From UHGV virus genome UHGV-0171787: a DNA stretch of 64,000 bases; one strand, given 5' to 3'. Origin of the DNA: a virus. The notes beneath the pieces were generated by a model. It was not told the DNA's origin. It did no database searches and saw only the letters and a program-made list of their open reading frames with translations. This document shows positions 34,053-39,543 of this stretch, piece by piece (positions within the stretch are counted from its first letter, which is position 1; each line of letters begins with the position of its first letter). The position numbers were made by a program, and so were the translations under genes.

Positions 34053-34234
34053 TTACGCTCTCCAATTTCTTCGTAATGACACTCAGTAGTTAAGCAGTCT
34101 TTACAGATTGCTGTATAAACCCTGACGTTAGTAAATCGTTTGTTCTTCCCTTTGGTTGGAGAGTCTTTGGCAAGCTCTCTGATAACCTTGTTACTTAAAT
34201 GAAGGTTTGTTCCTTCACATCTAGAGCACTTCAT
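34049..34234 (-). CDS. small zinc-ribbon protein
   Basis: 61 aa with two Cys pairs (CSRCEG ... CKDCLTTEC). Confidence 0.45.
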   Translation of the reverse strand: MKCSRCEGTNLHLSNKVIRELAKDSPTKGKNKRFTNVRVYTAICKDCLTTECHYEEIGERK

Positions 34235-34550
34235 GGTTCATATCTTTATGAATCCTGTAAACAGCTGTCGCCATACAAGCAACAGCCTCATTGTGTGGGA
34301 GGTGCATCCCTGTAGAACCATCCCAATCTTTGAACTCATTGTCAAAGACTCCAGTAGGTTCTGGATACAGAGCTTGCAGCTCAACCAAATCATTAGCAAC
34401 TTGTTGCCATTTATCATCAGACCAGATAGGGTCATCCAACCAGTAATACAAATAGGAATGGATGATCAATTGCCTTCTGTGCCGATTAATTATTTCAGCG
34501 GGACTTATCTCACTTCCGTTTGAAGTCCTAAATGTATTACTGTCAATCAT
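34221..34550 (-). CDS. hypothetical protein resembling the N-terminal Ia domain of NAD-dependent DNA ligase
   Basis: Pattern LIIHSYLYYWLDDPIWSDDKWQQVANDLVELQALYPE resembles the LigA Ia helix motif; a weak, memory-based similarity. Confidence 0.3.
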   Translation of the reverse strand: MIDSNTFRTSNGSEISPAEIINRHRRQLIIHSYLYYWLDDPIWSDDKWQQVANDLVELQALYPEPTGVFDNEFKDWDGSTGMHLPHNEAVACMATAVYRIHKDMNHEVL

Positions 34551-35240: not shown

Positions 35241-35450
35241 TTAATATTCTTTTACATAATAAACCACTAAGGTTCCCATCTCTGACAATGTTGATTTATG
35301 TAAGCTTACTTTACTATAAATCTTTGGAGACATCTTAAGAGCCTTCTTAAAACGGCGAGCGTCTTTACGAGTAGCAAAGTGCTCTGTAACAGGTATAGCC
35401 GGGTCTTGGTAGAGGTAGTATACCACCGTCCAATATTTTTTCATAATCAA
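35241..35450 (-). CDS. small hypothetical protein, paralog of 36926..37120
   Basis: Shares MKK(Y/F)W...R.(D)AR.FKK...(S/L)HK pattern with the ORF after the dCTP deaminase gene. Confidence 0.4.
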   Translation of the reverse strand: MIMKKYWTVVYYLYQDPAIPVTEHFATRKDARRFKKALKMSPKIYSKVSLHKSTLSEMGTLVVYYVKEY

Positions 35451-35727: not shown

Positions 35728-35907
35728 TTATGCAGTCAGGAGGTGAAGCAGGAATGGGATAACAACAGCTACAATAACCATGATGGTTGATGCTGTTTGA
35801 AGCTCACCTTTCTTGTCAGGGGTTTCTTCAATAAGCTTACCAGAAGCCCAATAAACACCACCACCAATAAAGATAGCCCAAATACCCCATACGATTGCTG
35901 ATAACAT
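35728..35907 (-). CDS. small two-TM membrane protein (59 aa), not in the ORF track
   Basis: Hand translation MLSAIVWGIWAIFIGGGVYWASGKLIEETPDKKGELQTASTIMVIVAVVIPFLLHLLTA; stop abuts the thioredoxin start. Preferred over the overlapping ORF 35769..36068. Confidence 0.4.
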   Translation of the reverse strand: MLSAIVWGIWAIFIGGGVYWASGKLIEETPDKKGELQTASTIMVIVAVVIPFLLHLLTA

Positions 35908-35967
35908 ATATCTATATCCTTATAAATAAGTTCGCCCCACCTCGGGTTAGGAGACAGGGCGTAGGTT

Positions 35968-36531
35968 TTAGTAAGACACATCACCACTTGAATGGGACAT
36001 GTTGCTCTTGACAAAGTAACAATACTTGCCAAGACCTTCATTAATTTCTTGAAGCATACTCTGATCAACTGGATAAGTAGCTAAATCGCCATCAAACTCA
36101 TCCATCTTCTCAATAATACACATCAAGGTCATGCACATATCAGAGAGCATACCATCCATGTCTAGATCAGCATTACCCTCTGAGAACCAAGCATGAGAGA
36201 GGTAGTTAGCTGCTGTAGCATCCACTTTAACACAGTGGTAGCGCATACGTTCAGCAATACGATCTCCTACTTGTCGTGCGTAATCTTCCAGCTCGTCAAA
36301 CATACCATGAACACCCTGAAACCCTGCACCAGAGACGTTCCAGTGGTAGTTCTTAGCTTTGATATGCAAGAGTTCCATGTTAGCTTGTAAGCAGCTCAGG
36401 ATGTGTTCTAGGCTGTTTCCGCTAATCATGCCTTGCATCGTTTCAAGGCGAGAGATTGAAAGCTCAGACCGGTCTAACACACTATAGCTGTCACGACCAA
36501 TCTCAGGTAAATCAAAAACATTCTTATGCAT
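35968..36531 (-). CDS. Dps / ferritin-like protein
   Basis: NYHWNVSGAGFQGVHGMFDELEDYARQVGDRIAERM resembles the Dps ferroxidase helices; start preferred at MHKNV (36531) with an upstream ggag. Confidence 0.55.
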   Translation of the reverse strand: MHKNVFDLPEIGRDSYSVLDRSELSISRLETMQGMISGNSLEHILSCLQANMELLHIKAKNYHWNVSGAGFQGVHGMFDELEDYARQVGDRIAERMRYHCVKVDATAANYLSHAWFSEGNADLDMDGMLSDMCMTLMCIIEKMDEFDGDLATYPVDQSMLQEINEGLGKYCYFVKSNMSHSSGDVSY

Positions 36532-36853
36532 TTGGCTTTTCTCCATCAAGTTCAACTGAATTAGCAACGTTACGTTCCAGATTGTCAATTACCTGCTGGG
36601 TAATTACGATGCAGTTCTGTGGATCTACTGACTTAGAACGCCCCATTTCAGGGTCATACACCTTAACACGCTTAGCAGTTGAACCTGTAACCTGAAGAAC
36701 CTTCAACAGATATCCCTGATTACCAATAGACCAAGCAACAACATCACGATTCTTGATAAAGCGACCAAGCATATCACGATGATAAAACTGTTGCATCACC
36801 TTGGATTTTGTAATCTCTTCAGTGGGCGGGGCCACTTTACTCAAATCTAACAT
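36524..36853 (-). CDS. hypothetical protein
   Basis: 109-aa ORF. Confidence 0.45.
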   Translation of the reverse strand: MLDLSKVAPPTEEITKSKVMQQFYHRDMLGRFIKNRDVVAWSIGNQGYLLKVLQVTGSTAKRVKVYDPEMGRSKSVDPQNCIVITQQVIDNLERNVANSVELDGEKPNA

Positions 36854-36925
36854 AACTCTCTCCTGTAAAATACAAATTCTTATTGTACTCTATATACATT
36901 TGAGAGTTACCATATCTACTACCAA

Positions 36926-37120
36926 TTAGTAGTGTACTTTTCCACTGAGATAAACACGACCAGAGGAATATTCTCTGGCCTTATGGATGCTAACGCTCTT
37001 AGTTAAGTCCCCATGAAACATAGACTTTTTAAAATCTCGAGCCCGTTGACGAGTAGGTAATGAGGTCATAGTCGTACAACCAGATGACCACTTAATCTTC
37101 ACTAACCAGAACTTTTTCAT
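36926..37120 (-). CDS. small hypothetical protein, paralog of 35241..35450
   Basis: ORF 36926..37153 trimmed to the MKKFW start, which removes overlap with the dCTP deaminase gene. Confidence 0.4.
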   Translation of the reverse strand: MKKFWLVKIKWSSGCTTMTSLPTRQRARDFKKSMFHGDLTKSVSIHKAREYSSGRVYLSGKVHY

Positions 37121-37127
37121 AATGATA

Positions 37128-37661
37128 TCACACACCTTTAGACGCAACCACACCTTCAGAGTTATTATAACGACCCTTCACTGCATAAGAATGCTCTCCT
37201 GCATGAGAGTGCTCAAACATAACCATCTGACCAACACGCATACCAGAACGGATTCTTAAGCTGTGATGTTTGGTCACATTATGAAATTCAAACGTCAATT
37301 TACTGTTATTAAACCCCCCATCTGCCCACCCGGCGTGAAGATGGTTCAAACCACAACGAGCCATAGATGAACGAAGAACAAACAAGCTTGAGATGTTATC
37401 TGGAAGGTTAAACTCTTCCATAGAGTGAGCCAAGAAGAACTGACCCGGAGTAATAACCAAACCCTCTTCAGGAATCTTTACTTCCTTCCACTGAAGATTC
37501 TCTTTCGCATCAATATCAACGATGCCATCAGCCTGTTCTTCAACAAGGATAGTATCACCAATACGGATATCCACACTAGCAGCGTTAACATACTTATGCT
37601 CCGCATCCAAATAGCCATTGTCAATTACATCGTGCAGTTCAACACTTCCTAGTAAACTCAT
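37128..37661 (-). CDS. dcd: dCTP deaminase (Dcd/dUTPase superfamily)
   Basis: LRSSMARCGL, RSGMRVGQMVMFE and a C-terminal YNNSEGVVASK parallel E. coli Dcd motifs. Confidence 0.7.
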   Translation of the reverse strand: MSLLGSVELHDVIDNGYLDAEHKYVNAASVDIRIGDTILVEEQADGIVDIDAKENLQWKEVKIPEEGLVITPGQFFLAHSMEEFNLPDNISSLFVLRSSMARCGLNHLHAGWADGGFNNSKLTFEFHNVTKHHSLRIRSGMRVGQMVMFEHSHAGEHSYAVKGRYNNSEGVVASKGV

Positions 37662-37682: not shown

Positions 37683-38984
37683 TCACACTTCAAAAGAGAA
37701 ACCGCGACCCGATTCATCGGCAAACCGAACTGTACGGGTTTGAGGTTCTAATACTTCAGGGTTGTTGGCAACAAATCTATCAGCGAGGCTATCTCCTAAA
37801 TCCTCTATCACATCTTCATCAGTCCACACAGTCCTAACCGGTACATCAAAGTCACCAGCAACAAAACCCTGACCGGAGAATTGACGTGCGCTGACAGTAA
37901 AGTCATTTGACCGACCACGAGAAGAACCAGTCATCCACCGCTCTGTAGAACCGTTCGTAATACCAAGAGCCTCTTCAAAAGATGTTCTAGGATCGGGGCT
38001 TTCACTTCGTGACTCTTGTGCTCGACGCATTTCAGGGACTGCAAACACCCCTTCCATTGTGTTGTGATGATTAGTCTCATCTTCCCGACCAAGTAGATCT
38101 CCACTTGTATTGGTTGTTAAGTTTGTCAACCCTTCAGACCAATACGCACTAATCTGACTAGATCCATGAACACTTGACATTAACTGGATTTCTTCATAAG
38201 GGATTCCAAAGAATCGACTCATGTCACGATTAACACAATACTGAGCACTTGTTGTATCCTCAACAAGAGCAACCTGACCCCATTCATTGATCAGATGACT
38301 GACCGGTTGAGGTGTGGGAAGATATCGAGATTGTGCCATATATTGGTATGCAACAGATGGAGCGGAGAATCTTAATACCTGTGAATTAGGCCACTTCTTG
38401 TGAACATACTTGATTTCACGACCAGAAACAACTACTGGACAGGGGGAGGTCATAGCCAAATATCCATGAGGGGTCATGAATAGATTGTCAAGAGTAATCG
38501 CACCACGGCACATCATAGGAAAGCTGTCCAACACCTCTTCAATAGAAGTAGGATAGTTAAACATGAATTGGATACGAACCCCACTCCACTGGAACTCAAT
38601 AATATCGGTAAATGTTAACAGAGATCCTTCAGCGTAGGCTTCATTCGTAGCTTCAGCAAGAAGGGAAGAGTACTCAATATCTTGAGACTCGAGCCACTCT
38701 TTCACGTTACTTTCAACCTCTCGTCCGAGATCTTGCCACTGGTCATGGTGGATAAAGGTGTTTCGAGTTCTTGGGGCCTGTCCTCTGACAATAAAGATAT
38801 CAATGTCATGAGGTGCTCTGTTATTAAGAACAGCATCACGAACAGCCCCACCAGTGATGATGGGACAAATACAGTCTGGAATCAAGTTGTTGTTAATCAG
38901 CTGTTCAATGAAGTGACGACCAACAGCGATATCAGGTTGTTGAGCAACCTTATCTGCAATTCGGTTAATCGGGATAACAATCAT
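37683..38984 (-). CDS. nucleotidyltransferase (CCA-adding / poly(A) polymerase-type head domain) with an unassigned C-terminal domain
   Basis: GGAVRD followed by DIDIF matches the class II NTase signature; start taken at Met 20 of ORF 37683..39041 to abut the upstream stop. Confidence 0.5.
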   Translation of the reverse strand: MIVIPINRIADKVAQQPDIAVGRHFIEQLINNNLIPDCICPIITGGAVRDAVLNNRAPHDIDIFIVRGQAPRTRNTFIHHDQWQDLGREVESNVKEWLESQDIEYSSLLAEATNEAYAEGSLLTFTDIIEFQWSGVRIQFMFNYPTSIEEVLDSFPMMCRGAITLDNLFMTPHGYLAMTSPCPVVVSGREIKYVHKKWPNSQVLRFSAPSVAYQYMAQSRYLPTPQPVSHLINEWGQVALVEDTTSAQYCVNRDMSRFFGIPYEEIQLMSSVHGSSQISAYWSEGLTNLTTNTSGDLLGREDETNHHNTMEGVFAVPEMRRAQESRSESPDPRTSFEEALGITNGSTERWMTGSSRGRSNDFTVSARQFSGQGFVAGDFDVPVRTVWTDEDVIEDLGDSLADRFVANNPEVLEPQTRTVRFADESGRGFSFEV

Positions 38985-38985
38985 T

Positions 38986-39543
38986 TTACATTTTCCAATA
39001 TAATGAAGGTGGGTCGTAAGGGTCAAATCCTGTGAGTTCACACAAGTATTTATAAACCTTAACAGTTAAATTAACGTCCTGTTCACAATAAGTAAACATA
39101 TCCTCAGTGAAAGCATCCCATGCTTCCTCTTGCTCACCGTAATCACCTTTAAGTTCCCCTAAGAACTCACCCCATTGCTTCAAGCCATGACCTCTTGGGC
39201 CATGTCTAGGGTCGCCTTTCGGGTACTCAGGACTGTCACCAATACGGTCAGGTTTAAGATATCGACTAAGACATAAAGTGTCAAAGACGTTAAAACGATA
39301 GTTAATCAGATTGGGATACATCTTCTTCAGAGCACAAAGGTCGAAGTCAATAATATTGTGACCCACGAGCACATCTGCTTCTGTAAGTTTATGAATCCCA
39401 TCTTCAATTTGGTGAGGCCGATAGCCCCACCTTTCACCAGTTTCAACATCGAAAACATAAATACACCATACTTTGGTTATATCATCGTATAGTGCATTAC
39501 TCTCAATATCGAATGCAAACACTTTCTTCTTTTTCTTTACCAC
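38986..39543 (-). CDS. 3'-5' exonuclease (DnaQ/DEDD-like), encoded separately from the polymerase
   Basis: Exo I-like FAFDIES and a downstream Y..EQD motif; GTG start overlaps the helicase stop. Confidence 0.55.

Follow-up and report, generated by a model that had tools for sequence, protein, structure and literature searches.

The window is a stretch of 64,000 nucleotides from the virus genome UHGV-0171787, read 5' to 3' on one strand. We found that it carries, on the minus strand at 35968..36531, a gene (dps) encoding a protein of 187 aa (21.2 kDa, pI 4.7) that is the orthologue of gp67 (phi32_67) of phage phiEco32. The open reading frame begins with the ATG at 36531, its translation starts MHKNVFDLPE, and its stop codon ends at 35968. 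These are exactly the coordinates given in a preliminary description of this DNA, which did not name the strand. A GGAG Shine-Dalgarno sequence lies 9 nt 5' of the ATG, and the ATG and the stop codon of the upstream gene overlap by 8 nt (ATGCATAA), an arrangement typical of translational coupling.

The 3 kb around dps are 91 to 94% identical to the corresponding DNA of about 100 genomes of Escherichia and Shigella phages of the phiEco32 group. Judged by its sequence, the window comes from a Kuravirus (Gordonclarkvirinae), a phiEco32-like prolate C3 podophage of E. coli. The dps product is equal in length to phiEco32 gp67 (YP_001671812.1; 98.9% aa identity, 2 substitutions) and to CDS67 of phage SU10 (96.8% aa identity), and both of these genes are placed like that of the window, between gp68 and gp66/thioredoxin. 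We used tblastn to look for homologues and found them in 137 of 50,697 phage records, 98 of which were at least 80% identical. Relative to its phiEco32 orthologue, dps has 22 synonymous and 2 non-synonymous differences (dN/dS, 0.019). Because identity of at least 80% is kept in those 98 records and dN/dS is about 0.02, the reading frame is not due to chance. The GC content of the gene is 0.429 versus 0.424 for the window. These comparisons point to an old resident gene under strong purifying selection.

The preliminary description had placed the gene among genes of nucleotide metabolism, and this is the setting that we found: dps is flanked by the dCTP deaminase gene (37128..37661, minus) and, at its other end, by the genes for thioredoxin, ThyX, and PhoH. 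The neighbors that act in deoxynucleoside triphosphate (dNTP) metabolism (dCTP deaminase, thioredoxin, and ThyX) are conserved across genera and in uncultured relatives. Relatives also have NrdD (Aeromonas phage BUCT695) or a stand-alone ATP-cone protein (Salmonella phage 7-11, Proteus phage P59, and the uncultured locus L007) beside dps. In the 7-11-like phages, the gene right after dps encodes about 100 aa that match only the N-terminal ATP-cone of NrdD (phrog_36488/phrog_487, PF03477). It lies at 3911-4207 in L003 (Salmonella phage 7-11), at 3469-3765 in L007, and at 3859-4194 in L004. Some records name the protein "anaerobic ribonucleoside-triphosphate reductase," and in BUCT695 a full-length NrdD stands at that position. 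We had considered a glycyl-radical fragment for this small ORF in 7-11 and rejected it, since the sequence matches the ATP-cone of NrdD instead.

Several other genes of this region deserve mention in their own right. A 59-aa ORF between dps and thioredoxin (35728..35907, minus) is a homologue of phiEco32 gp66 (phrog_9296). By inspection its product is largely hydrophobic and may reside in a membrane, which one would not expect of a protein encoded among nucleotide-metabolism genes. The ORFs at 35241..35450 and 36926..37153 (both minus) flank the thioredoxin-dps-gp68 block and are weak paralogues of each other (31% identity over 51 aa; pairwise E, 3e-5). Both products start MKK(Y/F)W and share the motif TR(K/Q)xAR(R/D)FKK. 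Between dCTP deaminase and gene 68 the window has one such small ORF, versus three small genes (gp69-71) in phiEco32. At 34221..34550 (minus) lies a gene for 109 aa that correspond only to domain Ia, the N-terminal NAD+-binding part, of NAD-dependent DNA ligase (PF22745; E, 1.5e-35). Its phiEco32 homologue, gp62, is annotated as "DNA ligase," and the product cannot be a ligase alone because it is without the adenylation and OB domains. Adjoining the dCTP deaminase gene, a gene at 37683..39041 (minus) encodes a 452-aa nucleotidyltransferase that matches the PolyA_pol/CCA-adding head domain only weakly (E, 0.0019). It has been proposed that this nucleotidyltransferase and dCTP deaminase might together underlie a DNA modification that would explain the resistance of these phages to restriction systems (BASEL paper, PMC11990801).

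Directly upstream of dps lies gene 68 (36524..36853, minus), which encodes the 109-aa homologue of phiEco32 gp68 (phrog_10984) and whose stop codon overlaps the dps start. We found no Pfam match for gp68, and its PHROG matches are only to groups without an assigned function. Its structure was modeled as a small five-stranded β-barrel with moderate confidence (pLDDT, 65.9), and the fold matches Tudor/SH3-like domains below significance (best E, 5e-3; TM-score, 0.47). A gp68-family gene stands immediately upstream of dps, with abutting coding sequences, in Proteus phage P59, in Aeromonas phage BUCT695, and in uncultured contigs of 101 kb and 68 kb. Counting the window, the adjacency is found across five divergent lineages (the other gp68-family genes at 3139-3423 in L004, 3190-3459 in L005, 2681-3001 in L006, and 2720-3001 in L007). 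In phage 7-11, the gp68-family gene and dps lie apart. Genes of the gp68 family and dps have the same distribution over phage genera, and in the Kuravirus relatives the mean column identity is 82% for gp68 versus 66% for Dps.

The 72 nt that precede gene 68 contain an element of the promoter type recognized by the phage sigma factor gp36, AAATGTATA (36893..36901, minus; consensus, tAATGTAtA). The sequence around this element is identical in phiEco32, and gene 68 is one of six phiEco32 genes for which a gp36-dependent promoter has been located by experiment (PMC8948821). An exact search for TAATGTAT gave no promoter upstream of gene 68, where the element is found only with one mismatch. The relaxed motif had 222 matches versus 254 expected and is thus not enriched over chance. 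Since the motif count is not above chance, we based the promoter assignment on the position of the element, its identity in phiEco32, and the published mapping. Right after the dps stop codon, at 35933..35961 (minus), lies a terminator-like hairpin with an 11-bp stem (7 G-C pairs) followed by AACTTATTTA. Two terminator-like sites were found in the scanned region versus 1.0 ± 1.0 expected, which makes this a weak signal. Genes 68 and 67 look like a two-gene middle transcription unit.

The dps product is a Dps-type mini-ferritin, a conclusion that rests on its Pfam score, its sequence matches in the PDB, its predicted fold, and its ferroxidase residues. The protein matched Pfam family PF00210 (Ferritin) with 31.1 bits (E, 2.5e-7), above the gathering score of 24.5, and PF00210 is also the precomputed Pfam assignment for all of the homologues. 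It matched PHROG 3636 with an E value of 2.6e-55. When we searched the sequences of the PDB, every match below an E value of about 0.5 was a Dps protein, and the top matches were M. smegmatis Dps2, B. subtilis MrgA, and B. anthracis Dlp-2 (E, about 1e-9). We also built an AlphaFold model of the monomer from a 66-sequence alignment (pLDDT, 88.8). The model has helices at residues 41-65, 71-98, 107-112, 125-146, and 154-176, of which 107-112 is the short B-C loop helix characteristic of Dps, and its C-terminal 10 residues are disordered. In a Foldseek comparison with the PDB, the best 50 matches listed were all Dps-family proteins, with an rmsd of 1.1 Å to Dlp-2 and a TM-score of 0.92 relative to Dlp-1. 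With regard to the 24-subunit ferritins and bacterioferritins, we found no helix after helix D (no E helix) in the model and none of these proteins among the best 50 fold matches listed. A search for a ferritin-like domain and a prediction of a four-helix bundle had been named in the preliminary description as checks on a Dps-like protein, and both the domain and the bundle were found.

That description had also reported ferroxidase-helix motifs like those of Dps. These are present. The codons for H63, (W64), H75, D79, D90, and E94 lie at 36250..36345 (minus), in helices A and B, and the residues belong to an intersubunit site. They align without gaps, at a constant offset of 12, with H51, W52, H63, D67, D78, and E82 of E. 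coli Dps, and the ligands have the same spacing in Listeria Dps (H31, H43, D47, D58, and E62). The reference sequences in this alignment were PDB 1f30_A for E. coli and 1qgh_A for Listeria, and the identity of each was confirmed. All five ligands and W64 are invariant in the 14-sequence phage clade. Across 66 diverse homologues, H63, W64, H75, D90, and E94 are invariant, and D79 is the exception. PDB entry 2bjy is, by its title, the H31G-H43G mutant of the Listeria protein, and both of these histidines align with H63 and H75. Homology and a ferroxidase site that requires the two-fold dimer suggest that the subunits assemble into a hollow cage of twelve, and the window Dps would be expected to have ferroxidase activity.

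The best matches in both sequence and structure were bacterial Dps proteins that are tail-less or do not bind DNA, namely B. anthracis Dlp-1 and Dlp-2 (1ji5 and 1jig), Listeria innocua Dps (1qgh), MrgA (2chp), and M. smegmatis Dps2 (2z90), with rmsd values of 1.1 to 2.3 Å, TM-scores on the target of 0.8 to 0.92, and E values of about 1e-9. Like the phage protein, they have the ferroxidase ligands and the short B-C helix and are acidic overall, at only 22 to 27% identity to it. In contrast to them, the phage protein is extended at both ends, by 40 aa with an additional predicted helix at the N terminus and by a 10-aa tail with a final Tyr at the C terminus, and its gene appears to be co-transcribed with that of the phage-specific gp68.

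The Dps of the host is much farther away. E. coli Dps (1dps and 1f30) has the fold and the five ferroxidase residues in common with the phage protein, and it was among the weakest PDB sequence matches (about 15 bits; E, 0.1 to 0.2 with phmmer). The NCBIfam equivalog model for E. coli Dps, NF006975, gave 34.5 bits, below its cutoff of 114. We considered a recent capture of the gene from the host and rejected it because of this great sequence distance; the GC content is also that of the phage average. Dps had been called a host DNA-protection protein in the preliminary description. Membership in the Dps family holds; a copy of the host Dps does not, since the match is weak and the basic DNA-binding tail is missing. 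When 1.84 billion representative proteins were searched exhaustively, only 13 were found at an E value below 1e-10, and the phage Dps clade is therefore isolated in sequence space.

The gene had further been called unusual for a phage. This is correct across phages in general, given the 137 records with a homologue, and incorrect for the prolate (C3) podophages, in which dps is a core gene of the whole lineage. The prolate podophages of the Grimontviridae (Salmonella phage 7-11, Proteus phages Privateer and P59, and Aeromonas phage BUCT695) have Dps homologues that are 35 to 45% identical. They share the catalytic residues and the replication/nucleotide module, and a gp68-family gene is present in the same genomes, usually directly upstream. 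They differ in being 146 to 154 aa long, with short basic N-terminal tails and no C-terminal tail, and in that their dps adjoins the NrdD or ATP-cone gene. Outside this lineage, Lactobacillus myophages and gut "Gratiaviridae" phages have DPS-like genes near genes of DNA metabolism, as in the window phage, and these belong to lineages and hosts unrelated to those of Kuravirus. Papers on them proposed that the DPS-like genes limit iron and peroxide damage. The dps genes of the C3 podophages are not mentioned in the papers on Lactobacillus and "Gratiaviridae" DPS, and one paper stated that DPS had been seen in seven Lactobacillus phages only, overlooking the C3 podophage lineage. Our literature searches found no phage Dps that had been studied by biochemistry or genetics.

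What might such a protein do for the phage? We think it fairly probable that it is a canonical Dps ferroxidase cage that shields phage DNA during its replication, and the enzymes of nucleotide synthesis, from damage by iron and peroxide. The family, the catalytic residues, the selection, and the operon come from this analysis and the expression from the literature, and from these we infer the dodecamer, the activity, and the role. According to this model, four-helix-bundle subunits, twelve by homology, would form the hollow cage. The ferroxidase sites would lie between paired subunits, with H63, H75, and D79 contributed by one chain and D90 and E94 by the other. They would oxidize Fe2+, as in Dps preferentially with H2O2, and the ferric iron would be deposited inside the cage. 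Removal of Fe2+ and H2O2 would take away both Fenton reagents. In Kuraviruses, protection would probably be chemical, by removal of iron and peroxide, and not a physical coating of DNA.

The middle-gene class of SU10 CDS67 and the detection of its product by mass spectrometry count in favor of this model, as do the gp36 promoter upstream of gene 68 and the conserved nucleotide-metabolism module. According to the model, the sigma factor of the phage directs transcription of dps and gene 68 in the middle phase, when phiEco32-type phages would already have shut off host σ70 transcription and the cell could therefore not induce its oxidative-stress response. In phiEco32, gp79 inhibits the σ70 holoenzyme in vitro and may cause the shut-off of host transcription, and phage 7-11 is without such a shut-off (PMC8948821). 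The rationale is weakened by this last point because 7-11 keeps dps without shutting off host transcription. A protective enzyme also does not predict the presence of Dps in the CsCl-purified virions of Privateer, which counts against the model, and the function of gp68 could change the picture of what Dps does.

A more specific version of the model gives gp68 a part in it. Here gp68 and Dps would be a dedicated, lineage-wide module in which gp68 docks on the iron cage and targets it to a particular site, for example the capsid, the replisome, or the complex that synthesizes dNTPs. In Kuraviruses, docking would perhaps use the N-terminal extension of Dps with its MHNNxFDLP peptide. We regard this module as speculative and its existence as doubtful.

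Another reading of the locus is that Dps stores or donates iron instead of giving protection, supplying the metalloenzymes of dNTP synthesis (the host di-iron NrdB working with the phage thioredoxin, or NrdD/NrdG in the relatives). The conserved position among dCTP deaminase, thioredoxin, and ThyX speaks for this, as does the location of dps directly beside NrdD or the ATP-cone protein in the relatives named above. Against it, we found no phage ribonucleotide reductase in the Kuravirus annotation examined, and in a compact phage module adjacency says little about functional coupling. In addition, the main task of Dps proteins is detoxification, and their iron cores are small (about 500 Fe). 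We consider an iron donor unlikely.

We give a similarly low probability to a DNA-binding, nucleoid-compacting protein that coats or condenses phage or host DNA as Dps does in stationary-phase E. coli. The family is named for that activity, and most records are annotated accordingly. In E. coli Dps, DNA binding is mediated by a Lys-rich N-terminal tail with a charge of +3. We looked in the window protein for the Lys/Arg-rich tail that marks the DNA-binding subclass of Dps and found none. The phage tail is longer than that of E. coli Dps and net negative. Its 40 aa (36412..36531, minus) have 1 Lys and 3 Arg versus 6 acidic residues (net charge, -2), the 10-aa C-terminal tail has a net charge of -1, and the whole protein has a pI of 4.72 and a net charge of -15. 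The extension is specific to the Kuravirus clade and consists of a conserved MHNNxFDLP start, a variable linker, and an S-x-x-R-L-E-x-M helix, predicted at residues 19-37 with a pLDDT of 61 to 71. Among Kuravirus-like Dps proteins, the N-terminal tail is 24 to 48 aa long, has a conserved S-x-x-R-(L/M)-(D/E)-x-M motif and often the MHNNxFDLP start, and is in all cases between -2 and +1 in net charge. The extension is absent from the 7-11-like homologues, which have tails of 9 to 18 aa instead, with net charges of +2 to +4 and basic motifs such as MLxARPKR and RSRPSLRR. These 7-11-like tails resemble the Lys-rich tail of E. coli and are a point in favor of DNA binding, as is the co-purification of the Privateer homologue with DNA-filled virions. 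An acidic surface is also no strict bar, since divalent cations could bridge protein and DNA. The closest structural matches of the window protein are nevertheless of the tail-less type. A Dps protein that has no free basic tail generally fails to bind DNA, as is the case for Listeria Dps, B. anthracis Dlp-1 and Dlp-2, and A. tumefaciens Dps. For the Kuravirus clade, the label "DNA-binding protein" is probably an over-transfer.

Less probable still is that Dps is associated with the virion, inside the prolate capsid or attached to it, and perhaps carried into the next cell. The best argument for this comes from Privateer, where a study from 2021 detected Dps among about ten proteins by mass spectrometry (MS) in virions purified by step and equilibrium CsCl gradients (PMC7881722). 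The Privateer protein is without the Kuravirus N-terminal extension, and a particle of about 9 nm, dense if loaded with iron, could co-band with the phage. In SU10, the product of the middle gene CDS67 was detected by MS in 2014 in a PEG-concentrated lysate (35.8% coverage, 6 peptides; PMC4281155). That sample was PEG precipitated and not purified on CsCl, it also contained DNA polymerase and thioredoxin, its authors allow for products of middle genes, and the detection speaks to abundance only. The SU10 cryo-EM/MS study of 2022, which used CsCl-purified virions, names gp20-24 as ejection proteins and never mentions Dps. The gene itself lies in the middle-class replication module, outside the late structural module. 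The conserved MHNNxFDLP peptide on its variable linker could in principle be a docking signal. We rejected Dps as a Kuravirus virion component as unsupported, given the unpurified SU10 lysate of 2014 and the silence of the later study. Finally, dps orthologues are labeled "integrase" in many GenBank and UniRef records (e.g., IME267, DE5, EK5, KM01, 172-1, and ES17), a reading for which these labels are the sole argument and which the results rule out with near certainty, since a Pfam scan at E values up to 10 found Ferritin only and no tyrosine or serine recombinase domain, the predicted fold is the Dps four-helix bundle, and one protein so labeled, P0005, has PF00210.

The Dps identity of the gene is already known. 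It has been in the databases since the phiEco32 reference genome was deposited, where the RefSeq product name of gp67 is "DNA binding protein; member of the Dps family," and it also appears in the SU10 and Privateer papers. The SU10 study reported a DPS domain in CDS67, classed it as a middle gene, and found CDS67, thioredoxin, and CDS68 in all five C3 phages then known (PMC4281155). In the Privateer study, a Dps-family protein was reported in purified virions and its function was termed unverified (PMC7881722). The new points are modest: the acidic, non-basic tails of the Kuravirus proteins, the pairing of gp68 and dps behind a phage-sigma promoter, and the "integrase" mislabel.

As a discovery, the gene thus has little weight: it belongs to the core genes of the prolate podophages, and its homology to Dps has been recognized ever since the sequencing of phiEco32. 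In practice, screens of candidate therapeutic phages could mistake strictly lytic Kuraviruses for temperate ones because of the "integrase" label, and the "DNA-binding protein" label has probably been carried over to an acidic, tail-less version of Dps. If the gp68-Dps module is true, these phages would have a targeted nanocage that scavenges iron and peroxide and not a free-floating copy of a bacterial stress protein. More broadly, dps genes recur in unrelated phage groups and bear on whether phages handle iron and peroxide stress during replication.
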